From the NCBI GenBank assembly GCA_963756875.1, contig CAVWPA010000002.1:64001-128000 (forward strand): a stretch of 64,000 nucleotides of DNA. The letters are read 5' to 3'. The DNA comes from an uncultured Verrucomicrobiae bacterium. Its GTDB lineage: Bacteria; Verrucomicrobiota; Verrucomicrobiia; Chthoniobacterales; UBA10450. A model generated the notes under the pieces. The model had not been told where the DNA came from, did not search any database, and saw nothing but the letters and a program-made list of their open reading frames with translations. The position numbers and the translations under genes were made by a program. The stretch's first letter is position 1; the number at the start of each line of letters is the position of its first letter. This document shows, piece by piece, positions 7,695 to 60,008 of the stretch.

Positions 7695-7801
7695 TCCGGG
7701 GAGCACAGGCTGCCAGCCTGTCTTTTTCGGCAGCTTGCCGAAAAGGAGTTGTCGTCGGCAAGCTGCCGACGACTGCAGGCAAGCTGCCTGCGCTCCCCGG
7801 A
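7695..7801. repeat. GGGGAGCG-type cruciform element, copy 2 (preceded by a GTAG REP arm at 7659 overlapping the mpg stop)
   Basis: TCCGGGGAGCACAGGCTGC...GCCTGCGCTCCCCGGA with internal hairpins TTTTCGGCAGCTTGCCGAAAA and GTCGTCGGCAAGCTGCCGACGAC. Confidence 0.9.
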
Positions 7802-16266: not shown

Positions 16267-16320
16267 TAGCGGGATCCACATCCTGTCGACGAATCATGGG
16301 CTGAAATCCCATGCCACGAC

Positions 16321-18576: not shown

Positions 18577-19773
18577 ATGGGCAGCTTGATCGAAAATCTC
18601 GAGCAATTCGCGATCGACGTCATTCTCGGGCGCCGTCGCGGGCTGCGTGCGTCCATTCTGCGCGGAATTCTTTATGGACTGTCGTTTGTCTATGAGCGGA
18701 TCGTTCAGTTGCGCCTCTATTTTTACCGGAAAAGGATTTTCCGCGAGCGCACACTTGGTTGTCTTGTTATCAGCATTGGAAATTTGACTGTCGGTGGCAC
18801 GGGCAAAACGCCCGTGGTCGAGAAATTTGCCCGCGCTCTGCAAATGGGCGGCCGCCGCGTTGCAATCCTGAGCCGCGGTTACAAGAGTGTGCCCCAGCCA
18901 AGCAAGCGCAACTGGCTGGATCGGTTGTTCAGGGAAGATGTCAGCCCCCCGCGAGTAGTTTCCGATGGGAAATCGCTTTTGCTCGATTCGCTGACAGCCG
19001 GCGACGAGCCTTACATGCTCGCACACAGTTTACGCGATGTGATCGTGCTGGTGGACAAGGACCGCGTCAAAAGCGGAAGATTTGCCATCGACAAGTGGAA
19101 AGTCGACACGCTGCTTCTCGACGACGGTTTACAGTATCTGCATCTCAAGCATCGGCTGGATATCGTACTCGTGGATCGCCAAGCGCCTTTCGGGAACGAG
19201 TTTCTGCTGCCGCGCGGCACCTTGCGCGAGCCGCCACGCAATTTGCGGCGTGCCAGTTATATTTTCATCACGAAAAACACCGGCCAATCGAACGAGGCGC
19301 TCGTGCAGCGAATTCGCAAGTACAATCGCGTTGCGGAGATTATCGAGTGCGCACACAAGCCGCTTTATCTGGAAAATATCTATACCGGCGAACGATTGTC
19401 ACTGGAACGGCTGCGTGACACTTTCGTCGGCTCGATCTGTGGGATCGCCGCGCCCGACAGCTTCGAAGATGCTTTGAGAAAACTAGGCGCACGCGTCGAC
19501 CTGGCGAAGCGTTATATCGATCACCACAGATATAGTGAGGCGGAGCTGCAAAGCTTTATCAACCGGTGCATCCGCCGCGACCTGGAAATGATTGTGACCA
19601 CCGAAAAGGACGCCGTGCGGATGCCGCGTTTGCCGGAAGCGGACGTTAAAGTGCCGATGTATTTTCTTCGCGTCGAAATCGAAATCGTGAGCGGGCACGA
19701 GAGCTGGGAGCAATGCGTTGCCCGCATTTGCAAGCCGCAACCCGTACTCTCGCCCGAGAGATTTTTTGCCTGA
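18577..19773 (+). CDS. lpxK: Tetraacyldisaccharide 4'-kinase
   Basis: [50 protein letters not shown]. Confidence 0.96.
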
Positions 19774-19781
19774 ACCGTTTC

Positions 19782-19861
19782 GCCACAGATGCACACAGAT
19801 AAAACACAGATTTAAAAAACGATTGGAATTTGATCTGTGAGAATCTGTGTCAATCTGTGGC
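19782..19861. repeat. Inverted array of ~10-mer tandem repeats (CACAGAT x3 / ATCTGTG x3)
   Basis: GCCACAGAT GCACACAGAT AAAACACAGAT ... ATCTGTGAGA ATCTGTGTCA ATCTGTGGC. Confidence 0.85.
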
Positions 19862-21364: not shown

Positions 21365-21835
21365 TTGTTCGGCAAAATCATCTCGGGAGGACAGACTGGC
21401 GTAGACCGCGCGGCGCTCGACGCCGCGCTAAAACACGGGATCGAGTGCGGCGGATGGTGTCCGGCGGGTCGGCTCGACGAGTTCGGCAAAATTCCCGCGG
21501 GTTATCCCGTTACAGAGCTACAGCAAGGGAGCTTCGCCGATCGCACCATGCGAAACGTGAAGGATTCCGACGGTACTCTCGTGGTTTTCTCGGGAGAACC
21601 GCGGGGTGGCACGCGGTTCACGCTCGAATGCTGCAAGCAGCTTCAGCGTCCGCACAGAATAATCGATGCATCTAGGGTTTCCGCCGAAGATGCCGCCCAG
21701 GCGGTTGTCGATTTTGTTCGCGGAAACAATATCGCTCTCCTGAACGTCGCAGGCCCACGGCGGAGCGAATGGCCGGAGGGATACGAATATGCGTTCCGCG
21801 CGCTCGATATTTTTCTCATAAACCCCGAGCTGTAG
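21365..21835 (+). CDS. SLOG superfamily protein (putative molybdenum carrier / YpsA-like)
   Basis: KIISGGQTGVDRAALD, GGWCP.GR, RT.RNV.DSDGT, GGT..T, LNVAGPR.S. Confidence 0.9.
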   Translation: MFGKIISGGQTGVDRAALDAALKHGIECGGWCPAGRLDEFGKIPAGYPVTELQQGSFADRTMRNVKDSDGTLVVFSGEPRGGTRFTLECCKQLQRPHRIIDASRVSAEDAAQAVVDFVRGNNIALLNVAGPRRSEWPEGYEYAFRALDIFLINPEL

Positions 21836-21893
21836 TGGCAGGCGTGCCGCCTGCTGCAGGAAGAAAATTGCAGCCGACACGCCTGCCACCACA
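21831..21893. repeat. GTAG-type REP doublet
   Basis: TGTAGTGGCAGGCGTGCCGCCTGC...GCAGCCGACACGCCTGCCACCACA; close copy at 38581..38642. Confidence 0.88.
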
Positions 21894-21924
21894 GCTTCAC
21901 CGTGATCGGCTCGTTCGCTTTATC

Positions 21925-34035: not shown

Positions 34036-34104
34036 CAGTCGTATTAACTCTTTCTGCGAGCATTGAGTGCGGCCCGCCTACCGCAGCCAAGGGCAGCGGC
34101 TACA
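33988..34104. repeat. GTAG REP doublet between convergent thpR and MFS genes, with nested 30-bp module (34003..34032)
   Basis: TGTAGCGGCGGTCTC[CCTGTCACGCCGGAGCCACGCGAAGGCGGA]TGACAGTCG ... GCAGCGGCTACA; contains both genes' stop codons. Confidence 0.85.
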
Positions 34105-35548
34105 GCCCTTTGCTCGATAACGGCGCGGCGATCTGTTCGAGAGAGCGTCGCTCCGCGGGCACGCCGATCCATGCTTCAATCACCGCGCCAAAAATCATCA
34201 GCGCCGCAGCCACCAGATACCCGACAAACAGGGCGGTGCCGGATTTCGTGCCGATAATCCACCCGAACAATAACGGCGCGCCAACGCCGCCTGCCAGCGT
34301 CCCGATTGCATAAAAAATCGCGATCGCCAGAGCGCGAATCTCCAGCGGAAAAATCTCGCTTACCGTCAAGTAAGCAGAGCTGGCGGCTGCCGAGGCGATG
34401 AAGAAAATGATCGTCCAGGCGAGAGTTTGCGTTTCTGCAGTCAGTAATCCTGCATGAAAAAACCAGCCCGTGATCGCGAGTAAAACGCCGGCGAGCGCGT
34501 AAGTCGCCGCGATCATTTTTTTGCGGCCGATCGTGTCGAACAAATGCCCGAGCAGCAGTGGGCCAAGGACATTCCCTAGCGCGAACGGCAAAAGATAGGC
34601 GCCGACATTTTTTTCCGGCACGCCGTAAAACCGCATCAGAACAAGCGCGTAAGTGAAAAAAATCGCGTTGTAGAAAAAAGCCTGCGTCAGCATCAGCACA
34701 AAACCAAGAAACGAGCGGCGCCGATGTTCGTGTGCGATGGCGTTCCAAATCTCGTGCAAGGGAGTATGCGTGCGGGTGCGAATTCGGGTCGGAACTAACT
34801 CGCCGTAATTGGAATCAATGATCCCGTCGGGATTTGATGCCATAACTTTTCGTTCGACTTCACCCACGATTTTCTCCGCCTCTTCATTGCGTCCGTGGAT
34901 CATCAGCCAGCGTGGACTTTCCGGGATCCACCACCGAAAGAAAATCACCACCACGCCGAGGGTAGCGCCGATTCCGAACGCGCACCGCCAACCCAGCCAG
35001 ACTGGAAACCAGCGCGGATCAAGCAACACCAGGGTCGCCGCCGCTCCAAGCGCCGCACCAATCCAGTAGGAGCCGTTGATCATCAAATCCACCCGGCCGC
35101 GAACCCGCGCCGGAATCAGTTCGTCTATAGCCGAATTGATCGCTGCGTATTCACCGCCGATCCCTGCTCCGGTGATCGCCCGAAAAACCGCGTAACTCGC
35201 AAAATTCCAGGAGAACGCGCTAAGTCCCGTGGCGACGAGATAAACCGAGACAGTAATGAAGAATAATTTTTTTCGCCCCAGCCGGTCCGTTCCATAACCA
35301 AAGACCAGCGCGCCAAGGACTGCGCCCGCAAGATAGCAGGTCGCGGTCGCGCCCACCTGCGTATCGGTCAATCCCAGCGTTTCGGGGCGTGTTAGAATTC
35401 CGCCTAACGAGCCCGCCAGCGTGACTTCCAGTCCATCGAGAATCCAGGTCGCACCGAGAGCGCCCACGATGAGCCAGTGCCATCGGCTCCACGGAAGGCG
35501 ATCCAGACGTGCCGGCACGTATGACTTGATGATTTTGCCGCTCGTCAT
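34100..35548 (-). CDS. MFS transporter (sugar porter / aromatic acid-like)
   Basis: RLDRLPWS, DRLGRKK, GIGGEY, ELIPARVRG, PESPRWL, SEIFPLEIR. Confidence 0.93.
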   Translation of the reverse strand: MTSGKIIKSYVPARLDRLPWSRWHWLIVGALGATWILDGLEVTLAGSLGGILTRPETLGLTDTQVGATATCYLAGAVLGALVFGYGTDRLGRKKLFFITVSVYLVATGLSAFSWNFASYAVFRAITGAGIGGEYAAINSAIDELIPARVRGRVDLMINGSYWIGAALGAAATLVLLDPRWFPVWLGWRCAFGIGATLGVVVIFFRWWIPESPRWLMIHGRNEEAEKIVGEVERKVMASNPDGIIDSNYGELVPTRIRTRTHTPLHEIWNAIAHEHRRRSFLGFVLMLTQAFFYNAIFFTYALVLMRFYGVPEKNVGAYLLPFALGNVLGPLLLGHLFDTIGRKKMIAATYALAGVLLAITGWFFHAGLLTAETQTLAWTIIFFIASAAASSAYLTVSEIFPLEIRALAIAIFYAIGTLAGGVGAPLLFGWIIGTKSGTALFVGYLVAAALMIFGAVIEAWIGVPAERRSLEQIAAPLSSKGL

Positions 35549-36432: not shown

Positions 36433-37819
36433 TCACAGCGTGCTGGATGGGACAAGGATCGCGTCGCTCATTCCGTGCAGAAATTTTTTGTCGGCGGGAA
36501 CGATTGTCGCGAGTGCGCCTCGCAATTTGACGCGATCGCTCTCGACGAAGAAATAGGGGCAAAGGCGCACGCGGCCTTTTATCGTTTTCAATTCGGTCGA
36601 TTCCGGATCCCAATATCGATGCTCGAACAGGCGGCCCTTGTGAAACTTCTGCATGATTGTGGGCGACGATTCGAATGTGGCGAGCGCGTGGTCGATTCGC
36701 TTTTCCCATTCAACATGCGGGAGATCGGCGCCGAGCGAGACACCGCGGCTGCCCCAGCCAAGCGGCGAAAATCCGCTCACTTTCAATAGAAGATCGCGAT
36801 CTTTCTGGCTAAACCTGGTGGCCTCGCGCCAATCGTGAATCTCAAGGCGTGGAATGACCGCATGCTGCGGCAACGGGGTGGGATCGAGCAGCCATGAATA
36901 GGGGATGACTTCCTGCAGCTTGAGAAAATATTTTTCGCCCAACTCGCGCCGCCAGAATTCACGCAACGGCTGCATCCAAAAGAGCGCAAACCACATTTTT
37001 TCTTCGAGGTACGGCTTGATCGGCGGTGTAATGGTGATGCGGCCTTCTGCATTCGCGCGCAGTGTCTTGTCGACGTTCGGGATGTTCGGCAGATCGAACA
37101 ACTCGAAGAAGCGGTAAACCGCGCGCCCATCCTCCGGCTCATAATTTTCCGCCGGCACGACGCGGAAAGAAGCCGATGCTGGATGTTGGATGCTGGATGC
37201 TGGATTTTCCGAGGCGGTGTCCGGCTTCTCATCCAGCATCAAGGATCCAGCATCCAGTATCTTCCGGTTGAGTCGCGCGGCCAGCCATTCCATCTCCGGA
37301 CGATAAGTTGCCGATTCCTGCGAAATCGCGACATCGCCGCCGTTGGGAAGAACGCTTTGAAATCCATCGAGCATTCCGTCCGTGCCACCAATGATTTCCT
37401 TTTCGAACGTCGAATAAGTTTGATTGAGCCACGCGGTTAAACCAATGCCGCCGGGTACAGAATCGATTTCCGCGATGATATAACCTTCGTCGGTGAGAAT
37501 GAGATCGGGGCGAATCACACGCGGCAGGTCTTCTCGAATCTCCTTGCGTCGGGAGAATTCGACGAGTTCCGGCGGTTTGCCGGCGTCCAGATACCGCGCA
37601 ATCCACGGCGGTTGCTTTCCCTTGATGCTCAACTGGTAAAGCTGGTTGCACGCGCGTTGAAAAACGAACAGGCGATGTCCAAGCTGTTCGAGCTCAGCCA
37701 CAAATGTCTTTCTCGACCGGAAACGCGTCGGGCGAAAGCAGCCAGTCCTTTTCCGCGAAGAGGCCCTCTTTCGGGAAGGCGGCACGAATGGCGGAAAGTC
37801 TGTCTTCTTGGACGAACAT
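36433..37819 (-). pseudogene. ATP-grasp-like (glutathionylspermidine synthase-like) protein with an early +1 frameshift
   Basis: IRPDLIL..G..IAEIDSVPGGIG, LLKVSG...WGSRGV..G, IMQKF; the N-terminus MFVQEDR..LSPDAFPVE joins KTFVAELEQ if one T is removed at 37709-37711. Confidence 0.7.
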
Positions 37820-37823
37820 TAAG

Positions 37824-37922
37824 AGCAAACGTCCAACGCCGAACGCCGAACGTCCAACGTCCAATGCAGAAAATTTCTGAATTCGACTTTCGGCGTTGGA
37901 CGTTGAGCGTTCGGCGTTTGCT
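37824..37922. repeat. Inverted heptamer tandem array (AACGYCS)n ... complementary tract
   Basis: AACGTCC AACGCCG AACGCCG AACGTCC AACGTCC ... CGGCGTT GGACGTT GAGCGTT CGGCGTT; fills the gap after ruvA. Confidence 0.88.
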
Positions 37923-41060: not shown

Positions 41061-41292
41061 ACAACGTCCCATTCATCCTGCACTTTCACGTTCACGTGCA
41101 CTCTCTTTTCAAGAGCGGCAGCACGTGTAAGTGAAAGAGCAGGAGTAAAGATGGAAAGTGGCGGAGGGGTGAGATTATCCAAAGCTTTGGTTTGGCTATG
41201 GAGTTAGAGCTCTACAATAGCTGAAGTTTAACGTTCGCCACGGACGCCGACTTGCTCAACTTCGTCGCGGTGGCAAACTTGCTGCGCCGCGC

Positions 41293-41341
41293 TGTAGCCG
41301 CGGTCGTTGACCGCGGTCTGGCGTCAGAGACGCCGGTTACA
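41293..41341. repeat. GTAG-type REP directly upstream of tRNA-Ser
   Basis: TGTAGCCGCGGTCGTTGACCGCGG..GGCGTCAGAGACGCCGGTTACA. Confidence 0.8.
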
Positions 41342-41351
41342 GTTGAATCCC

Positions 41352-41439
41352 GGAGGGGTGGCAGAGTGGTTGATCGCGCCGGTCTTGAAAACCGGAAGGC
41401 CGAAAGGCCTCGTGAGTTCGAATCTCACCCCCTCCGCCA
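41352..41439 (+). tRNA. tRNA-Ser (TGA), CCA encoded
   Basis: GGAGGGG acceptor stem, CCGGT-CTTGAAA-ACCGG anticodon arm, long variable arm AGGCCGAAAGGCCT, GTTCGAATC T-loop, GCCA end. Confidence 0.98.
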
Positions 41440-45701: not shown

Positions 45702-45708
45702 TTCTTAC

Positions 45709-45768
45709 TGTAGCGGCGCTCTATGACCGTCGCATTTATTAGTCCGACGCTCATAGAGCGCCGCTACA
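45709..45768. repeat. GTAG REP doublet (the empty form lacking the 30-bp module)
   Basis: Perfect IR TGTAGCGGCGCTCTATGA / TCATAGAGCGCCGCTACA; its TAG is the stop of the ABC gene. Confidence 0.92.
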
Positions 45769-47410
45769 GCCGAAGTCCTTTTGGAATCAAAACGCGGTCG
45801 AGAAGATCGAAAAGCCACTGAACCAGCAACGCCAGAAGCGCCGCTGGAATCGCGCCTTCCAGAATAGTGACGTGATCGTTCAGGTTCAGTCCGCTCAAGA
45901 TCGGTTCGCCCAACCCGCCGGCGCCGATCAAGGCGGCGAGAGTGGCCGTGCCGATGCTGATTACCGCGCTGGTTTTGATTCCTGCCAGAATGGATCGCGA
46001 AGCGAGTGGCAAATAAATCTTTCGTAGACGCGCTCCCGGTCCCAGGCCAAGCGCGATCGCCGAGTCGCGAACCGGTTGAGCGATGTCCTGCAAGCCGCTG
46101 GCCGTGTTGCGCACGATCGGCAGAAGCCCGTAAAGAAAAAGCGCGACGATAGCAGTCCGCGTGCTGATTCCAAAAAACGGCAGCGGCACGAGCAACGCCA
46201 GCAACGCCAGCGCTGGAATCGTTTGCACCATCCCCGTAAAGCCGAGGATCACGTGGCCGACCGCGCCGCCGCGACTGGCGAAGATGCCGAGCGGAATTCC
46301 GATCAGCACCGACAGGAGGAGGGCGGCCCCGGCAAGTTCGAGGTGGCGCAAAGTCCAGCGCGCGAGTTTATGCCAAAATGTTTCGCCGAAAGCGGCTGTC
46401 TTTCCGGCAGCGGTTCCAAAATACAAGCTCGCCGCTCGCGAGTAATTTTTCGTTCGCTCGGCTTCCGCGTTCAATCGAATCATCCGTTGCTCATCGATTG
46501 TTCCCTCCAGTTTGTGCAGTACGTCGATCGCTGGCATTGGAAGCGCGAGGCGATATAGAAACACGGCATCGTAACGCGGAAAAAACTTCAGATTATCCTC
46601 GAGCGTGACCAGATCGTATTCGGCAAGTTTGGCATCGGTTGAGTAGGCGTCCTTTACATCAATAGAACCGCTCTTCAGCGCGGCATAACCAAGCGCGTGA
46701 TCGATCCCGATTACGGTCTGCGGATGCAATTGATAATCCTCCGCGAGCGGCCGCCAGCCGTCGTTTCGATCCAGAAATTCGTGCGTAAGCCCGAATCTGA
46801 GCTCGGGATGCGCCCGCAGGTCGCTGATGGTGTGAATGCCAAGTTGCTGCGCCTGATTTCGCCGCATGACCAGCGCGTAGGTGTTGTTGAAGCCAAGCGG
46901 CTTTGTCATGCCCACGCCAAATTTTTGAAGCGCGTCGCGAATTTCGCGGTTCGACAACCGGTTATTCGTTTTCAAGATCTCCTGTGTGATCGTTCCCGTG
47001 TATTCGGGATAGGTGTCGATCTGTGCGCCGCGCAACGCTTCCCAGAGAATGATCGTGCCGCCCATTCCTTGACGATGTTCCGCGGGAATACCGGCGTTGA
47101 TAAGTGCGTGTTTCGCTACTTCTCCAAGCACGTAAGACTCAGTGAATTTTTTTGAGCCAATTGTAATGGGCTTCGCATGCGCGCTATGCAAACCGATCAG
47201 AAGATTTGCAACGATTAGCACGTGGTAACGAACAGATCGACGGATGAGCGCGATTTCCGGGGAGCGCACGCTCCCTCGCGTGCGGCGCTTGGCGCCCTCG
47301 CCAGGCGCATACCCGGTGCGTGGCGTTACCGCGCACGAGGTTTTCGGCGGGGGCGCCGAAAACGGCACGCGAGGCGCGCGCGCTCCCCGGAGCTCTCGCG
47401 TCGCCGTCAT
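45764..47410 (-). CDS. Quaternary-amine (betaine/osmoprotectant-type) ABC transporter, fused substrate-binding + permease
   Basis: IGSKKFTESY, YPEYTGT, FNNTYAL, YSTD, FFPRY (OpuAC-like) followed by permease QTIPALAL / LIGAGGLG; ATG overlaps the ATPase stop (ATGA); start uncertain. Confidence 0.9.
   Translation of the reverse strand: MTATRELRGARAPRVPFSAPPPKTSCAVTPRTGYAPGEGAKRRTRGSVRSPEIALIRRSVRYHVLIVANLLIGLHSAHAKPITIGSKKFTESYVLGEVAKHALINAGIPAEHRQGMGGTIILWEALRGAQIDTYPEYTGTITQEILKTNNRLSNREIRDALQKFGVGMTKPLGFNNTYALVMRRNQAQQLGIHTISDLRAHPELRFGLTHEFLDRNDGWRPLAEDYQLHPQTVIGIDHALGYAALKSGSIDVKDAYSTDAKLAEYDLVTLEDNLKFFPRYDAVFLYRLALPMPAIDVLHKLEGTIDEQRMIRLNAEAERTKNYSRAASLYFGTAAGKTAAFGETFWHKLARWTLRHLELAGAALLLSVLIGIPLGIFASRGGAVGHVILGFTGMVQTIPALALLALLVPLPFFGISTRTAIVALFLYGLLPIVRNTASGLQDIAQPVRDSAIALGLGPGARLRKIYLPLASRSILAGIKTSAVISIGTATLAALIGAGGLGEPILSGLNLNDHVTILEGAIPAALLALLVQWLFDLLDRVLIPKGLRL
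47256..47391. repeat. GGGGAGCG-type cruciform element, copy 3, within the 5' end of the ABC gene
   Basis: TCCGGGGAGCGCACGC...GCGCGCGCTCCCCGGA with internal hairpin GTTTTCGGCG..CGCCGAAAAC. Confidence 0.85.
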
Positions 47411-48155: not shown

Positions 48156-48236
48156 TGTAGACGCTTTCCTCCGGGAAGCGCGAAGCTGTAGTATCAAGGA
48201 CGCGCGGGTCGCGCCTCGCAGAGCGAAGCGGCTACA
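48156..48236. repeat. GTAG REP doublet between egtD and the ABC ATPase
   Basis: TGTAGACGCTTTCCTCCGGGAAGCG ... GCGAAGCGGCTACA; supplies the egtD TAG. Confidence 0.75.
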
Positions 48237-49203
48237 GGGTTGTAAAATAAAAGACGCCAAACAAGCGTGAATCGTCGGTCCACAGTTTTTGAAAGTCGAA
48301 TCCGGCACTGTGGGCAAGCGCCGCGAAGCTATCCGGCGTGTATTTGTAGGAATACTCGGTAAGAATTCTTTCGCCGGCTGCGAAATGAAATTTCCGGTCC
48401 TGGATATGGACCGCCTGGTCGTCGTTACTAACCAGATAAATCTCGATCCGGCCCTCGCTCGAATTGTAAACGGCCGAATGGTGCCAATGTTTTAAGTCGA
48501 AATCCGCATCGAGCTCGCGGTTTGCGCGAGCAAGCAGATTTAGATTGAACTGCGCCGTCACACCGGCGCTGTCGTTGTAAGCGCTTTCCAGAACGTGTCT
48601 CTCCTTTTGCAGATCGACACCAATCAAAAGCCCGCCGCCGTGCCCGCAATGCTGGGCGACGCGCTTTAAAAACGCCGCCGCGGCCCCGAGCTCAAAGTTG
48701 CCGACGGTAGACCCTGGAAAGTAAACAACTTTGCGCGCGGGTTTTCGTGTCGGGGAAGGCAAATCGAATGGTTCCAGGTAATCGGCGCAAACGGGCAGAA
48801 CTTCCAGGTCCGCAAACCTTTTCCGAAACCAGACGGTGGATTCTTCCAGTTGCTCCTTCGAAATATCCACCGGGATATAGGCGACCGGTTTCTCCAGCCC
48901 TTCAAGAAGCAGGCGGGTCTTTGTTCCTGCGCCAGTGCCGAGTCCGATTAGCTCCACGCCGCGGCCGAGCAGCGCTGAGATTTCATCAGAATAACGGTCG
49001 AGAATCTGCAACTCGGTCCGGGTTGGATAATATTCCGGCAGCTCGCAAATTTTTTGAAACAGGGCTGCGCCAGTGGCGTCGTAAAAATATTTGCACGGCA
49101 GGCTGCGGGGCCGGCTGAAAAGACCGTCAACGACTTCGGAAAGGAAATCCGATTTCGCCGGCTCGAGATCGAGAACAGCCGTTCGATTTAAGTTGCGGTT
49201 CAT
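48232..49203 (-). CDS. egtD: L-histidine N-alpha-methyltransferase EgtD
   Basis: LPCKYFYD..G..LF..I..LPEYYPTRTE, LG.G...KT..L, FPGST.GN, AYND..GVTA.FN.N, TEYSYKY. Confidence 0.95.
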   Translation of the reverse strand: MNRNLNRTAVLDLEPAKSDFLSEVVDGLFSRPRSLPCKYFYDATGAALFQKICELPEYYPTRTELQILDRYSDEISALLGRGVELIGLGTGAGTKTRLLLEGLEKPVAYIPVDISKEQLEESTVWFRKRFADLEVLPVCADYLEPFDLPSPTRKPARKVVYFPGSTVGNFELGAAAAFLKRVAQHCGHGGGLLIGVDLQKERHVLESAYNDSAGVTAQFNLNLLARANRELDADFDLKHWHHSAVYNSSEGRIEIYLVSNDDQAVHIQDRKFHFAAGERILTEYSYKYTPDSFAALAHSAGFDFQKLWTDDSRLFGVFYFTTL

Positions 49204-50579
49204 GCGACATCGTGTCCGAGCCGGATCCCGCTGAATTGCCAGCGCTTGTCCGGTTGGAAGAAATTGCGATAGGTTTTACGGATGTGCGTGCGCGATGTTG
49301 CGCAGGAACCGCCGCGCAACACGTACTGATTGCACATAAACTTTCCATTGTATTCACCGAGCGCCCCCGGCGCCGCGCGATAACCGGGATAGGGCGAATA
49401 GGCGCTGCGGGTCCATTCCCAAACATCCCCAAAGAGCTGGTGCAGCTTGTTAGAGCCGGTTCCATGCGTGTTGTTTCCCTCACCTGGCGCTTTGCGTCCT
49501 CCTCTCCCTGAGGGAGAGGATTGAGGTGAGGGCGTGCCGGAACTGGCGGCCGGGTGGAACCGCTCGGTCTCGACGAAATTTCCATCAAGCGGAACGTTTG
49601 CGGCCGCGCGCTCCCATTCGAACTCGGTGGGAAGCCGCGCTTTCGCCCAATTGGCGTAGGCATCGGCTTCGAAATAACTCACGTGGGTGACAGGCTCGTT
49701 TTCGTCGACAGGACGAAATCCGGAGAGCGTGAAGTTCCACCAGGCGTCGTCGCGTTTCGTCCAATAAAGTGGCGCCTGCCAGCGCTGTTCGTTCACTGTC
49801 GTCCAGCCTAACGAAAGCCAAAATTCGGAACGCGCGTAGCCGTTGTCCTCGATGAACCGAAGAAACTCTCCGTTGGTCACGAGTCGCGGAGCAAGCGAGA
49901 AAGCCGGCACCAGGGCGCGATGACGGGGACCTTCGTTATCATAGGAAAATCCACGGCCGTCGTGACCGATCTCAAGCGTCGCTTCGTCGAACTCGACAAA
50001 GCTTACTGGCGAAACGTTACCAGATTCCTTGTCGACATTGCGTTTGCGATAAACCGGATGAAGCGGGTTTTGCGCGAAGACATGCTTGATATCGGTGACC
50101 AGCAACTCCTGATGTTGCTGCTCATGATGGATGCCGAGAATGACAATCGGCTCGATTTCGCGGAACAGTTTTTCGTCTGCGCCGGAGAGAAGTTTATTAA
50201 TGGACGAATCGACCGACGAACGGTAGCGCCGCGTTTCGTCGACCGTAGGTCGCGAGATCAACCCGCGAAGGTCGCGCCGGTGCATGTCACCGGCCGCATT
50301 ATAATAGGAATTAAAAAGATAAGCGTACTCCGGAACCTCCGGCTTATAGCCGGGCAGCCATTTTTTTAAGAGGAACGTTTCAAAGAACCAGGTGGTATGC
50401 GCGAGATGCCACTTCGTGGGGCTGACTTCCGGCATCGATTGAACGACACAATCCTCCGGCGCCAGTCCCTGGCAGAGTTCTGTCGTAAGGTTTCGGACGT
50501 CATGAAATCGGTTGAGTAGAGACGGAAGGCGCGACGAGGCGGCCGGCGAGCGCGACGGCGCGGCCGTTGCCTTTTCCAT
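49200..50579 (-). CDS. egtB: Ergothioneine biosynthesis sulfoxide synthase EgtB
   Basis: VQSMP..SPTKWHLAHT.WFFE, FNSYY, R..RG...RP, HHEQQHQE, DNEGP.H, GDVWEWT, GEYNGKFM, YRNFF; 4-bp overlap with egtD. Confidence 0.96.
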   Translation of the reverse strand: MEKATAAPSRSPAASSRLPSLLNRFHDVRNLTTELCQGLAPEDCVVQSMPEVSPTKWHLAHTTWFFETFLLKKWLPGYKPEVPEYAYLFNSYYNAAGDMHRRDLRGLISRPTVDETRRYRSSVDSSINKLLSGADEKLFREIEPIVILGIHHEQQHQELLVTDIKHVFAQNPLHPVYRKRNVDKESGNVSPVSFVEFDEATLEIGHDGRGFSYDNEGPRHRALVPAFSLAPRLVTNGEFLRFIEDNGYARSEFWLSLGWTTVNEQRWQAPLYWTKRDDAWWNFTLSGFRPVDENEPVTHVSYFEADAYANWAKARLPTEFEWERAAANVPLDGNFVETERFHPAASSGTPSPQSSPSGRGGRKAPGEGNNTHGTGSNKLHQLFGDVWEWTRSAYSPYPGYRAAPGALGEYNGKFMCNQYVLRGGSCATSRTHIRKTYRNFFQPDKRWQFSGIRLGHDVA

Positions 50580-50599
50580 TGTTGCAGCTCCCGTCGAAC

Positions 50600-51001
50600 T
50601 CAAGTGATTTCGCCTTCTTGTTCCAGTTCTTCCCTTCGCGCCTCGACCATTTGATCGTGCTCGGCTTCTTCCAATCCGTCGTTCACCAGATGTTCGCCAA
50701 GCGTTTCTTCTTCCTCTGCTCCCGGTCGAGGGGCACGGTGACCCTTGGAACCGGCAACCACGTTCCATTCCTCGGTCACGTCTGCATTGCTGGGCGTTTC
50801 CTCCGGCGGGGTGTTAAATTCCGCGCCCATCAGCTCCTGTCGGGCCTGGTTCCAGTCCTGGTCCGTGAAATCGTCGGGGTTGCGCTCGTCGATTAACGCA
50901 ATTTCCCGGGCGCGTTTTTCTACTTCTTCCGGCGACGGCACGCCCATCCCGCTGCCATGCAGGAAAATTTTGCCGCTGGGCGGTTCTGATTGGTCGTTCA
51001 T
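50600..51001 (-). CDS. Acidic hypothetical protein upstream of egtB
   Basis: 133-aa ORF, E/D-rich, RAREIA..DW.QA..EL pattern; 20 bp from the egtB start. Confidence 0.75.
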   Translation of the reverse strand: MNDQSEPPSGKIFLHGSGMGVPSPEEVEKRAREIALIDERNPDDFTDQDWNQARQELMGAEFNTPPEETPSNADVTEEWNVVAGSKGHRAPRPGAEEEETLGEHLVNDGLEEAEHDQMVEARREELEQEGEIT

Positions 51002-54084: not shown

Positions 54085-54197
54085 TGTAGACGCTTAGATC
54101 TGCGCCGTCGCCGAACCCCAAAAGCTTTCGGGGAAGGAGACTGCCAGGCGTCTGTGCCAGCCCCGAAAGCATTCGGGGTTCACAGAAACGCCCTACA
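54085..54197. repeat. Composite GTAG REP containing two CCCCGAAAGC-type hairpins
   Basis: TGTAGACGC...CCCCAAAAGCTTTCGGGG...CCCCGAAAGCATTCGGGG-TTCACAGAAACGCCCTACA. Confidence 0.8.
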
Positions 54198-56465: not shown

Positions 56466-59400
56466 ATGCCCCGCGACTCGTTCGTCCACCTGCACCTGCA
56501 TACCGAGTACTCGCTGCTCGACGGTGCGATTCGGATGAAGCAGCTGATGAAAAAGGCGGCGGAATTCAAGATGCCGGCGGTGGCGATGACCGATCACGGC
56601 AATCTTTTCGGGGCGATTGAATTTTATCAGGAAGCGAAGCGCGCGGGCATCAAGCCGATCATCGGTTGCGAGGCTTATATCGCGCCCGGTTCGCACCGGG
56701 AGCATGCCAACTCGCGGCGAGGCGCGGCTTATCATTTCACTTTGCTGGCGCAAGACGAGACCGGCTATCGAAACCTGGTCAAGTTGATCACGACTGCGCA
56801 TCTCGATGGATTTCATTACGCGCCGAGGATCGACAAGGAGCTTCTCGCCCAGCACTCGAAGGGACTGATCGGTCTGAGCGGTTGTCTTGCCGGCGAGATC
56901 AATTCGGCGATTCAATCGAATAATCTCGAGAAGGCGAAGCAGGCCGCGGCCCAGTATCGCGACATCCTGGGCCCTGAAAATTTCTTTATCGAACTGCACA
57001 ACCACGGCCTGGAGGAGCAGCAATGGTGCAACGCCGTCCTGCCGAAAATTGCGAAGGACCTGGGCCTCGGACTGGTTGCGGCGAACGACGTTCATTTTCT
57101 CCGGCGGAGCGATCATGACGCGCACGATGTCATGCTTTGCATCGGCACCGGCAAGATGGTGCAGGACGAACACCGGATGCACTACGCGCCGGAACTTTAC
57201 TTCAAATCGCCTGCGGAAATGCAGGAGTTGTTTCGCGATTTTCCGGAAGCGCTGACCAATACGCTTGAGATCGCCGAGCGTTGTAATCTCACGATCGAAT
57301 TCGGCAAGTCGAAGTATCCGCAGTATCCGGCTCCGGAAGGCAAAACGCGGGAGGGCTACCTGCGCGACCTTTGTTGCCGGGGTTTGGAGGAACGCTACGG
57401 TGAACGCGCGCGGAACGACGATCATCTTCGGCAACGTCTCGATTACGAACTGAGCGTGCTCGAAAAAACCGGTTTCGTCAGTTACATCCTGATCGTCTGG
57501 GATTTCATCCGCTTTGCGAAGGACAGAAAAATCCCGGTTGGACCGGGGCGCGGTTCCGCGGCGGGATCGCTGGTGGCCTATGTGCTTGGGATCACGGACA
57601 TCGATCCGCTGCAATATGGGCTCATCTTCGAACGCTTTCTGAATCCGGACCGCGTTTCGCCCCCGGATATCGATGTCGATTTTTGCGAAACCCGCCGCAG
57701 CGAAGTCCTTGAGTACGTTCGCCAAAAATACGGCGAACGCCGGGTCGCGCAGATCATCACGTTTGGAAAATTGAAGGCCAAGAGCGTGGTGCGCGACGTG
57801 GGCCGTGTCATGGGCCTGAGTTATCGCGACGCCGACCGCATCGCGAAGATGATTCCAAACGAACTGAATATCACGCTCGAGTCCGCCGCGAAAAAAAATG
57901 TGGAACTGGAGCGTGCGATCGCGAATGAGCCGCAAACGAAGCAACTTTTCGAATACGGAAAAACGCTGGAAGGCTTGTCGCGCAATGCCGGCGTTCATGC
58001 GGCCGGTGTCGTGATCGCCGATCGCGACCTGACGGATTACATCCCGCTTTGCCGCGACGTCAAAGGCAACGACGTCATCAGCCAGTATTCGATGGGGCCG
58101 CTCAACGATCTCGGGTTGCTGAAAATGGATTTTCTGGGGCTAAAAACGCTCACTGTAATCGAAGACACACTCACGTTGATTCGCGAGCACGAGGCCGATT
58201 TTTCGCTCAAAGGCATTCCGCTCGACGATGCGGCTTCCTTCGGGCTCTACAATCGCGGCGAGACCACCGGACTGTTCCAGATGGAATCAGGCGGCATGAC
58301 TTCGGTTTCCAAGCAATTCGACGTCGGGAAAATCGATGACATCATTGCGCTGATTGCGCTTTATCGTCCCGGCCCCATGGATCTCATCGGCGACTATATC
58401 CAGCGCAAGAAAGGCCTCACAAAAATCCGGTACGAGCATCCCTTGCTGGAAGAAATTTGTGCCGATACCTGCGGCGTGATGATTTATCAGGAACAAGTAA
58501 TGGCGGCCGCCAGCAAGCTGGGCGGCTACTCACTCGCGCAAGCCGATCTTCTTCGCCGGGCGATGGGGAAGAAAGACAAGGAAAAGATGGCGAAAGAGCG
58601 CAAGAATTTCATCGAAGGCTGCGCGCGCACGAACAAGATCCCTGAAAAAAAGGCGAATGCGATTTTCGATTTGCTCGAGAAATTCGCCGGGTACGGATTC
58701 AATAAGAGCCACAGCGCGGCGTACGGACTGATCAGCTACCAGACTGCGTATTTGAAGGCGCATTTTCCGGTCGAGTTCATGGCCGGTTTGCTCAGCAACG
58801 AAATCAGCAACACCGAAAAAATTTCGGTGTTCGTCGCCGAATGCAAACGGATGGGCATCTCGATCCTGGCGCCGGACATCAATCGAAGCGGGTTGAAGTT
58901 TGTTCCGGAAAAACGTGGCGCCTGCATCCTCCCCGTGAAACCGGAAGATCATCGGCAAGATGCCGATGCCACATTCAATGCGATTCGTTACGGGCTGGCC
59001 GCGATCAAGAACGTTGGCCAGGCGGCGATGGAAATGTCGATCCAGGAACGCGAACGGGGAGGGGATTACACGTCGCTGGAAGATTTTTGCGGGCGGCTCG
59101 GAACGCGCGTCGCGAACCGCAAAATGCTGGAGAGCCTGATCAAAGCGGGCGCATTCGATTTTCTCGGACGCGATCGCGCGGAACTTTCCGCCTGTATCGA
59201 CGAAGCACTGGCGGCCGCGGCGGCAGCCCATCGCGATCGAGCCGCGGGCCAGGTCTCATTGTTCGACGAAGCGATGCATGCGGCGACAACGACCACGCGC
59301 AAGCAGGTGAAACCGTGGAGCGATCATGAAAAGCTCTCTTACGAGAAAGAGCTGCTCGGGTTTTACGTGAGCGGCCATCCGCTCGATGCTTATGCCGATC

Positions 59401-60008
59401 TTCTCGCGGCGAAAAATTATCAATCGGTCGGTTCGTTAGGTGAGCTGAGCGATCGCGCGCTCTTCAAGACCGCCGGCGCCATCGCCCAGGTCGACAAAAA
59501 GTTTACGCGAAGGGATGGCAAACCGTTCGCGGTCATGTGGCTCGAAGACTTGAGCGGCACGCTTGAGGTAGTGGTTTGGAACGATCTTTACGTGAAGGTT
59601 GCGGAGACGCTTGCGCCCGGACGCGTCGTGGAAGTACAGGGAACAATCGACGCACGCGGCGACTCGCTGCGCGCAACGGCGCAACGGGTGAAGGTGCTCA
59701 GCTCGGAAAGACCAAACGGATCGGCTCGCGGGAATGGAGAGTCGGCGAGTGGGTCGAAGGAATCGGTCGTGCTTCTGCAATTTTCGCCCGCGGCCACCGG
59801 CGATGAGCTGCGCGAGGTGCGCGAAATTCTGGCGAGTTCTCCGGGAGATCGTCGCGTGCAATTGCTGTTTGCGCGCGCCGGCGACGATCCGCTGCGGGTC
59901 GACGCCGGTGATGACGTTCGAGTGGATTTGACGCGTGACCTTGAAGCGAAGCTCGCCCGCTGGCTGGTAAGTACCAAGTCGGAGCGGCGCAGCGCAATGA
60001 ACGCCTAA
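56466..60008 (+). CDS. dnaE: DNA polymerase III alpha subunit
   Basis: FVHLHLHTEYSLLDG PHP domain, GPGRGSAAGS, PPDIDVDF, KMDFLGL, YGFNKSHS, EKELLGFY.SGHP. Confidence 0.99.
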   Translation: MPRDSFVHLHLHTEYSLLDGAIRMKQLMKKAAEFKMPAVAMTDHGNLFGAIEFYQEAKRAGIKPIIGCEAYIAPGSHREHANSRRGAAYHFTLLAQDETGYRNLVKLITTAHLDGFHYAPRIDKELLAQHSKGLIGLSGCLAGEINSAIQSNNLEKAKQAAAQYRDILGPENFFIELHNHGLEEQQWCNAVLPKIAKDLGLGLVAANDVHFLRRSDHDAHDVMLCIGTGKMVQDEHRMHYAPELYFKSPAEMQELFRDFPEALTNTLEIAERCNLTIEFGKSKYPQYPAPEGKTREGYLRDLCCRGLEERYGERARNDDHLRQRLDYELSVLEKTGFVSYILIVWDFIRFAKDRKIPVGPGRGSAAGSLVAYVLGITDIDPLQYGLIFERFLNPDRVSPPDIDVDFCETRRSEVLEYVRQKYGERRVAQIITFGKLKAKSVVRDVGRVMGLSYRDADRIAKMIPNELNITLESAAKKNVELERAIANEPQTKQLFEYGKTLEGLSRNAGVHAAGVVIADRDLTDYIPLCRDVKGNDVISQYSMGPLNDLGLLKMDFLGLKTLTVIEDTLTLIREHEADFSLKGIPLDDAASFGLYNRGETTGLFQMESGGMTSVSKQFDVGKIDDIIALIALYRPGPMDLIGDYIQRKKGLTKIRYEHPLLEEICADTCGVMIYQEQVMAAASKLGGYSLAQADLLRRAMGKKDKEKMAKERKNFIEGCARTNKIPEKKANAIFDLLEKFAGYGFNKSHSAAYGLISYQTAYLKAHFPVEFMAGLLSNEISNTEKISVFVAECKRMGISILAPDINRSGLKFVPEKRGACILPVKPEDHRQDADATFNAIRYGLAAIKNVGQAAMEMSIQERERGGDYTSLEDFCGRLGTRVANRKMLESLIKAGAFDFLGRDRAELSACIDEALAAAAAAHRDRAAGQVSLFDEAMHAATTTTRKQVKPWSDHEKLSYEKELLGFYVSGHPLDAYADLLAAKNYQSVGSLGELSDRALFKTAGAIAQVDKKFTRRDGKPFAVMWLEDLSGTLEVVVWNDLYVKVAETLAPGRVVEVQGTIDARGDSLRATAQRVKVLSSERPNGSARGNGESASGSKESVVLLQFSPAATGDELREVREILASSPGDRRVQLLFARAGDDPLRVDAGDDVRVDLTRDLEAKLARWLVSTKSERRSAMNA

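Follow-up and report, generated by a model that had tools for sequence, protein, structure and literature searches.

Based on the arm architecture of a short palindrome and on its comparison with related genomes, the element at 58915–58972 of the window (the whole 64,000-nucleotide (nt) stretch of Chthoniobacterales DNA analysed here) is very probably a doublet of repetitive extragenic palindromic (REP) sequences, that is, a miniature mobile palindrome resembling a REPIN (REP doublet forming hairpins) and belonging to the GTAG-tagged superfamily in its GTGG variant, which lies in a permissive surface loop of the DNA polymerase DnaE and is translated there. Most inserts found in this loop are palindromic REP doublets or singlets. 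A doublet has a tag, either GTAG or GTGG, followed by a roughly 8-bp stem with a loop of 3 nt, then a spacer, in many cases of 12 nt, and the same unit in inverted orientation. A first-pass annotation of the window had proposed that a REP doublet became about 20 amino acids of DnaE, and this order of tag, stem, loop, spacer and inverted copy supports the proposal. The gene, the loop and the parts of the element are as follows.

56466–60008, plus strand: dnaE, DNA polymerase III alpha subunit (DnaE1 type), 1180 amino acids; from the open reading frame (ORF) and its translation, NCBIfam and Pfam.
58902–58982, plus strand: variable DnaE loop, residues 813–839, 27 residues (VPEKRGACILPVKPEDHRQDADATFNA); from alignment of relatives, within the Pfam HHH_6 match.
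58915–58937, plus strand: left REP arm, a GTGG tag and a decayed hairpin, encoding GACILPV; five mismatches to the intact left arm of the relative L001.
58938–58949, plus strand: 12-nt spacer, encoding KPED; from comparison of the arms.
58950–58972, plus strand: right REP arm, a perfect 8-bp stem, a 3-nt loop and a CCAC tag, encoding HRQDADAT; from the inverted-repeat listing and folding.

The host polymerase is of the replicative DnaE1 type. It reaches 1439 bits against the NCBIfam equivalog NF004226 (cut-off 1002) and 1384.5 against NF005298 (cut-off 1260), and with NF004225, the model of the error-prone DnaE2, it scores 652, under the cut-off of 939; a score above the equivalog and below the DnaE2 cut-off is what would be expected of a replicative Pol III alpha subunit. 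Pfam recognizes PHP, DNA_pol3_alpha, finger, HHH_6 and OB domains in the protein. The HHH_6 match (residues 797–907) comprises 111 residues over 90 profile positions, and since it is longer than the profile, the extra residues sit inside the HHH_6 domain. The 27-residue loop is bounded by ...SGLKF upstream and IRYGLAAIKNVG downstream, and its REP-encoded part corresponds to the codons 58914–58973, which give RGACILPVKPEDHRQDADAT (residues 817–836) between ...SGLKF-VPEK and FNA-IRYGLAAIKNVG. The ORF is unbroken over the insert throughout its 1180 amino acids, as in the in-frame insertions of Rickettsia palindromic elements (RPEs), and the first-pass claim that the palindrome is translated in frame in DnaE agrees with this. 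Tryptic peptides predicted from the translation, GACILPVKPEDHR and QDADATFNAIR, lie in the insert or over its downstream junction.

The element itself consists of a 23-nt arm, a 12-nt spacer and a second 23-nt arm in inverted orientation, and base-by-base comparison of the arms gives complementarity at 16/23 positions, exactly the inverted pair and gap reported at first pass. Read on the minus strand, the right arm is GTGG followed by a perfect 8-bp stem with a 3-nt loop; as single-stranded DNA (ssDNA) it folds with −8.7 kcal/mol (z −4.74, equalled by 0 of 200 shuffles), and its earlier description as a hairpin in its own right is correct. The left arm has three mismatches to a degenerate pattern written from the right arm (2 matches against 0.02 expected). 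Decay of this left arm had also been suggested, and two relatives bear on it: in L001, which carries the window's family of element, both hairpins are intact (−20.3 kcal/mol, z −6.5), the right arm equals that of the window at 23/23 positions and the left arms differ at 5/23, and in P0002, the closest relative (89% identical overall), the loop also has 27 residues and the left arm has decayed in a different way.

The relatives also reveal what the loop looks like without an element. The 120 best homologues are Chthoniobacterales DnaEs with 76–90% identity over residues 700–960, and these have hypervariable loops that group into distinct peptide classes, 116/120 fitting the first pattern, including three with a 10-residue loop. 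For the DNA, 80 loci were collected by a scan of species-representative genomes, a set that does not include the window's genome and in which the best match is 80% identical, and a tree of 81 DnaE sequences was inferred from the alignment with the loop removed (IQ-TREE, quick mode). The insert-bearing clade comprises 53 rows with a support of 100 in the Shimodaira–Hasegawa-like approximate likelihood ratio test (SH-aLRT); 46 of them possess inserts, and seven have a loop of 7–10 residues with the outgroup pattern xPExxDGKMA. Outside this clade, 24/28 rows have a loop of 9–12 residues, and the remaining four have non-palindromic loops of 16–19 residues. The outgroup loops are thus short and free of the palindrome, and no unpalindromic outgroup loop of the window's length was found, a result that leaves the first-pass interpretation standing. 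By alignment, about 5–7 residues occupy the loop in the solved DnaE proteins of E. coli and T. aquaticus. In a set of 150 diverse DnaE cluster representatives, of which 128 could be parsed by our loop delimiters, the loop has at most 8 residues in 82, 9–12 in 15, 13–19 in 7 and at least 20 in 24, compared with 27 in the window, and the earlier statement that it is normally short is consistent with these lengths. Since the loop is usually short yet extended in other lineages, the position appears to be a generally permissive site. In an unrelated DnaE lineage outside Verrucomicrobiota (P0156, P0177, P0182, P0229 and P0267), a conserved extension of 30–31 residues with the pattern EIQ...DPSL.Y.FPVP..SA is apparently a stable feature.

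Manual classification of the 46 insert-bearing rows yielded at least six palindrome families.

Family A: 2 rows (the window and L001), GTGG tag, GTGILPV...HRQDADAT.
Family B: 11 rows, GTGG tag, WEGPQRP...GTEAAPT.
Family C: 6 rows, GTAG tag, TVAAVYDRR...GAHRAPLQ.
Family D: 19 rows, GTAG tag, VAGIADPG...GIIDPGY.
Family E: 1 row, GTAG tag.
Family F: 4 rows, GTGG tag, GASVSLA...SEDARAT.

The 12-nt spacer of the window is common to the family A, C and F alleles of the relatives and to an intergenic family-C doublet of the window. Family C occupies the DnaE loops of L053, L030, L003, L017, L008 and L002, and the loop of L053 is one of several pristine copies, with a perfect 26-bp stem (−35.4 kcal/mol, z −11.0), other inserts being decayed. 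Three further insert alleles fall outside the six classes, one of which is the 67-residue insert of L048. This insert (437–637 of its locus) derives from a different, larger palindrome with a folding energy of −56.8 kcal/mol for 201 nt, and no second copy of that palindrome was found in the examined loci.

Copies of the loop palindromes elsewhere were searched for with up to four mismatches in 1.244 Mb, comprising the window and the flanks of its relatives, together with shuffled controls. Outside dnaE loops, family C has nine copies and family D five, and the shuffles yielded none for either. The family-C copies include a doublet and a singlet (41294–41316) in the window, and one of the family-D copies, located elsewhere in the L055 locus, matches the DnaE arm of L055 itself at 26/26 positions. 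The general pattern of GT[AG]G, an 8-bp stem and a loop of 3–5 nt occurs 110 times in the 1.24 Mb, compared with 18 times in one shuffled control; dnaE loops account for 33 of the 110. Among REP-like hairpins outside dnaE, 28/76 lie inside ORFs of at least 300 amino acids; most of these seem to be hairpins that conserved coding sequence forms by chance, the one convincing exception being a site in an MFS transporter gene. Two intergenic elements of the window are of interest here.

16295–16317, minus strand: probable REP singlet of the GTGG type, with GTGG, an 8-bp stem containing one mismatch and a TTC loop; from the arm search and folding.
45708–45769, unstranded: intergenic family-C REP doublet, GTAG-tagged; from the inverted-repeat listing and folding.

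The doublet is pristine (−28.1 kcal/mol, z −9.67). The singlet is intergenic, after a dodecin gene and before the next ORF, has a z score of −2.93 as ssDNA (3/200 shuffles equal) and differs by five mismatches, including a compensatory stem change, from the intact left arm of L001, which is suggestive of membership in family A. An arm similar to those of the DnaE element had been placed between genes at 16296–16318 by the first-pass annotation; the arm is there, one base off, and an intergenic family matching the DnaE arm is borne out only weakly by a singlet at this distance. When the search for copies of families A, B, E and F was relaxed to 5–6 mismatches, weak matches only were obtained. 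The best family-A match outside dnaE, at 18794–18816, was rejected as a chance resemblance: it is the Walker-A coding sequence of LpxK (GGTGKTPV), which happens to contain GTGG and an 8-bp stem with one mismatch. Because it is as close as the singlet at 16295–16317, near-matches of such quality arise by chance.

The inserts can be read through in frame throughout the comparison, as the reading frame is open over the loop in 81/81 DNA sequences. In clades that share one insert length, amino acid identity is 60–65% in the insert and 90–94% in the flanks of ±150 nt; the corresponding nucleotide identities are 77–78% and 87–93% in three of four sets, and 84% and 82% in the fourth. That the inserts diverge faster than the sequence on either side agrees with a tolerated peptide under weak constraint and suggests that the inserts may be near-neutral filler.

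Several observations weigh against the interpretation of the element as a REP doublet that was inserted and has since decayed. In the window, the motif of GTGG with a perfect hairpin of at least 6 bp occurs five times, against a shuffle mean of 1.9 and a maximum of 5, and GTAG-tagged hairpins occur twice, against a mean of 1.0, neither of which is significant; moreover, eight inverted pairs of 23-mers in the 64 kb share this spacing and match at 16/23 or more positions. By themselves, the window statistics do not beat chance, and it is the relatives that establish the element as real. Families A, B, E and F are without a convincing copy outside dnaE loops at up to four mismatches in the 1.244 Mb. 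No REP-associated tyrosine transposase (RAYT) was detected among the 62 ORFs of the window (Pfam, E up to 1e-5) or by a crude motif scan of all loci, a sample so small that a single-copy gene is unlikely to be captured in it. The insert-bearing alleles have lost about 9–18 nt from the centre of the ancestral loop, which means that the elements were not cleanly inserted. Finally, the right arms of the window and L001 are identical at 23/23 positions despite flanks that are about 78% identical, which pure neutral decay does not predict, and this identity suggests constraint, recent conversion or recent transfer as possible causes.

The most probable course of events at the DnaE loop is as follows. 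A REP doublet would have landed in the surface loop when the present Chthoniobacterales lineage was still represented by an ancestor, and, as the insert stayed in frame, about 20 extra residues of DnaE would simply have been translated. The peptide may be a tolerated passenger without a required function, and the DNA palindrome would decay after insertion, leaving in the window the right hairpin alone. The loop could then have become a hot spot, both by tolerating insertions and through a resident REP that attracts further REP events such as replacement, conversion, partial deletion and duplication, with RAYTs or recombination between REP copies as the possible mediators. Because the gene is needed, only those products that remain in frame would survive.

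In line with such a scheme, the state of the loop varies among close relatives. One clade with a support of 100 holds three states (L035 empty, L047 family B and L049 family D), and another with the same support includes an empty loop (L037), a family-D singlet (L044), a family-D doublet (L055), family F (L040) and family B (L045). Sister pairs also differ, namely L008 (family C) and L009 (empty; support 98), L002 (family C) and L010 (empty; 99), and L001 (family A) and L030 (family C; 100). In a larger FastTree phylogeny of 189 rows, the sister of the window is P0003, which belongs to family C and is 93% identical (support 99), and the five rows of the window's clade are A, A, C, C and B. Family A, represented by 14 rows in this tree, requires at least 11 changes, and all loop classes together require at least 70, compared with a shuffled mean of 121. 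A tree uniting the 46 insert-bearing rows, a group defined after the tree had been seen, is rejected by the approximately unbiased (AU) test (difference in log-likelihood 1643, p 6.8e-52). The flanks of the sister pairs are 87–95% identical up to the edges of the loop, with no divergent tract, and since sisters differ in loop state with unchanged flanks, the loop is a turnover hot spot. In L044, a former doublet seems to have shrunk to a singlet. In the loops of P0009 and P0021 the right arm is duplicated, and in that of P0073 two different elements are adjacent, alleles that indicate duplication and nested or adjacent insertion as probable events at one loop.

The same distribution could have arisen from a few old alleles (empty and A to F) that homologous recombination shuffled among related lineages, or that were sorted out of a long-lived polymorphism, and we regard this as a serious, if somewhat doubtful, possibility. 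Within a family, junctions and lengths agree even between distant rows, as in family A, where two residues always separate PE from GTG and the loop length is 26–27 residues in 11/14 class-A rows, and the 23/23 identity between the right arms of the window and L001 is also in its favor. A permutation of flank linkage showed that the near-flank distance within a class is about one percentage point below the prediction from distant gene parts (p 0.001–0.02), but this effect is small and the permutation had no control for phylogeny. Against the shuffling of old alleles are the lack of a divergent tract beside the loop in sister pairs with different alleles, the left-flank codons of L008, which carries family C and yet has the codons of its empty sister L009 rather than those of other family-C alleles, and the pristine palindromes of L053, L049 and L055, which look recent.

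A second in-frame REP site is found in a transporter gene of the window.

34100–35548, minus strand: MFS transporter ORF, with a decayed family-D singlet in frame at 34805–34828 that reads ...PDGIIDSNYG...

At the same position, L005 (2216–2296) and L013 (2044–2124) have an intact family-D singlet and L023 (2256–2336) has a family-C singlet, each in a segment of 81 nt, and L041 (1575–1670) has an unrelated insert of 32 residues (96 nt). As this site is taken by different families, re-use of a site is not peculiar to DnaE. A more far-reaching version of the insertion model, which we consider unlikely as it stands, is that the DnaE loop, and likewise the cytoplasmic loop of the MFS transporter, acts as a self-renewing landing pad, where other families would displace the resident REP in place, by conversion between REPs or by exchange that RAYTs mediate, almost as fast as species diverge. 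If this were true, REPIN activity would be naturally recorded in an essential gene, with REPs as interchangeable cassettes that diversify a surface loop of the replicase.

It is rather improbable that the insert is adaptive as a protein segment, either because a longer variable loop in the helix-hairpin-helix (HhH) region modulates contacts with DNA, clamp or partners or because diversifying selection, for example for inhibitor escape, uses REPs as ready-made cassettes. The insert is kept in 46/53 clade members with the frame always preserved, HRQDADAT is unchanged in 6/14 class-A rows (the window, P0002, P0006, P0009, P0014 and P0038), and intragenic REPs are reported to be over-represented in genes of replication and repair (Di Nocera, De Gregorio, Rocco 2013, BMC Genomics 14:522, PMC3733652). 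However, seven close relatives do well with the ancestral loop of 7–10 residues, the inserts diverge much faster than their flanks, unrelated peptides are interchangeable at the loop, and the like behaviour of the MFS transporter loop points to a property of the repeats and not of DnaE. Less probable still is a function of the hairpin as a nucleic-acid element in dnaE, whether as a signal for mRNA stability, processing or translational pausing or as a DNA structure, with the peptide as a by-product. Such a role would suit the perfect right-arm hairpin that is identical in the window and L001, and REPs are reported as RNA elements downstream of genes in the same paper (PMC3733652), but the palindrome is missing in sister species and decayed in the left arm of the window and in L002, L007, L020 and L021. 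The entire 58-nt element as ssDNA reaches only −10.5 kcal/mol (z −1.94, with 11/200 shuffles folding equally), the 81-nt loop region as RNA has a z score of −0.97, and scans with Rfam and for tRNAs gave no match at the element. An ordinary lineage-specific extension by local indels with a chance palindrome, or an assembly artefact, would accord with the weak window-only statistics but is, as far as the compared sequences allow, already refuted by the intact two-hairpin element of L001 (z −6.5), by REP palindromes in frame at the same loop in dozens of independent assemblies, by the dispersed copies of families C and D that shuffles do not produce, and by the 110 tagged 8-bp hairpins against 18 in the shuffled control, 33 of them in dnaE loops.

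Further repeats are present in the window. The intergenic family-C doublet at 45708–45769 is situated between an aldehyde dehydrogenase gene and an OpuAC/permease gene, and its CTACAG terminus provides the TAG stop (45764–45766, minus strand) of the ORF 45764–47410. At 41292–41341, a REP heterodimer composed of a GTAG-tagged hairpin and an inverted GTAA-tagged hairpin lies directly upstream of tRNA-Ser (41352–41439). An inverted pair at 21828–21896, with 27-nt arms that are 89% complementary and CTGTAG and GTGG at its ends, is located between a cpYpsA-family gene and a MacB/FtsX-like permease gene and is probably another REP-type doublet. Between a methylpurine glycosylase gene and mnmA, there is a composite palindrome of 107 nt (7695–7801) with 47-nt arms, 81% complementary, and several small hairpins. 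Intergenic inverted repeats of other sequence types occur at 19782–19861, between lpxK and a LigD primase-polymerase gene, and at 54113–54181, between tatA and glnA. Short tandem or inverted arrays with units such as GGATGCT and AACGNCG are found at 37175–37261 and 37828–37918, that is, in and just past a 450-residue ORF (36433–37785, minus strand) without a Pfam match. Unrelated to the DnaE finding, neighbouring genes at 48232–50768 (minus strand) encode Methyltransf_33 (histidine-specific methyltransferase) and FGE-sulfatase plus DinB_2 domains, a pair that we take to be typical of ergothioneine synthesis (EgtD/EgtB).

Among known mobile palindromes, a miniature inverted-repeat transposable element would have terminal inverted repeats of the insertion sequence type and a target-site duplication; at the junctions inspected here no direct repeat was seen, and the ancestral loop has lost a segment instead of having one duplicated. 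Of the RPEs, RPE-1 is longer and specific to Rickettsia, a host that differs from the present one in phylum and lifestyle. In the portion of Di Nocera et al. used here, RPEs are palindromic repeats carried in frame by genes whose function is retained, presumably where the protein surface tolerates them, and the short RPE-4 and RPE-6 belong to a CGTC-tagged superfamily (PMC3733652); the tag here is GTGG or GTAG instead of CGTC, and judged by this tag, not by the RPE sequence, the window element is not an RPE. The first-pass annotation had named the Rickettsia elements as the established parallel, which holds for the in-frame insertion, but a closer precedent exists in the GTAG/GTGG-tagged intragenic REPs of Opitutus terrae, a member of the same phylum with a corresponding peptide signature. 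With respect to REPINs, the sections of Bertels and Rainey 2011 (PLoS Genet 7:e1002132, PMC3116915) considered here define them as two inverted REPs with a short spacer that form a hairpin or 'clover' in ssDNA; the doublets are the replicative unit, excision events were observed, and the elements are extragenic and abundant, with one single-copy RAYT per family. The window element shares the two inverted, pairing REPs and the short spacer (23 + 12 + 23 nt, 16/23 complementary), and in L001 the hairpins are intact, whereas the window copy is intragenic and translated, and the elements of 58–62 nt are shorter than the GI REPIN of about 71 nt and more (PMC3116915).

The closest match is the superfamily described by Di Nocera et al. 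(PMC3733652), which, in the portion of that work drawn on here, is defined by a stem-loop of 6–9 bp with one end tagged GTAG or degenerate GTRG or GTGG, and of which several families coexist in O. terrae. That species has the most intragenic REPs of any (about 70 of GTAG type are listed), and their dimers encode 20–30 amino acids; LpxK of O. terrae contains genuine REP dimers. In one O. terrae family, designated GTAG-20 in the main text and represented by matching peptides labelled GTAG-19 in the supplement, GTAG is mutated to GTGG in most elements (PMC3733652). The architecture of a tag, a 6–9 bp stem and inverted in-frame dimers is the same as that of the window element. With peptides alone compared, O. 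terrae GTGVPPV-x-HGRDARAT resembles GACILPV-KPED-HRQDADAT of the window, with GTGILPV/GTGVPPV and HAQDARAT in the family A of the relatives, and VAGVADPG...PGY resembles family D. By the tag and stem definition and by this peptide correspondence, the window element is a member of the GTAG-tagged REP superfamily. GTAG termini also provide TAG stop codons (PMC3733652), as at 45764–45766 of the window. Replication and repair genes such as those of DnaE2, UvrA and a ligase are often struck by intragenic REPs, R. conorii DnaE has a CGTC-type REP at residues 853–861 of 1181, and recB of two Xanthomonas species contains different REPs at about the same site (PMC3733652).

A translated intragenic REP dimer of the GTAG/GTGG type in Verrucomicrobiota is therefore already published as a kind. 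A literature search on REPs in Udaeobacter returned nothing, and in a search on intragenic REPs and DnaE the sole relevant paper among those listed was Di Nocera et al. 2013; site re-use of the present form, with at least six families and an empty state alternating at one replicative-polymerase loop among close relatives, was not found in print. Practically, loops of this type make proteins seem more divergent than they are and can give rise to false homology between unrelated ones. The loop offers a rare natural system for REP dynamics, in which gain, loss, partial deletion, duplication and family replacement take place at one frame-constrained orthologous site that is readable over hundreds of metagenome-assembled genomes, and it bears on the target choice and turnover rate of REPINs and on whether the published excess of REPs in replication and repair genes is due to chance. 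With this element, the essential proteins with translated selfish palindromes come to include the replicative polymerase of a soil lineage that is abundant and for the most part uncultured (Chthoniobacterales, near Candidatus Udaeobacter). Compared with the portion of the Di Nocera list covered here, in which this host, the replicative DnaE1 of Chthoniobacterales, does not appear, the scale of site re-use is new, one loop being occupied by six or more families, or left empty, in about 50 related species, sister sequences included.

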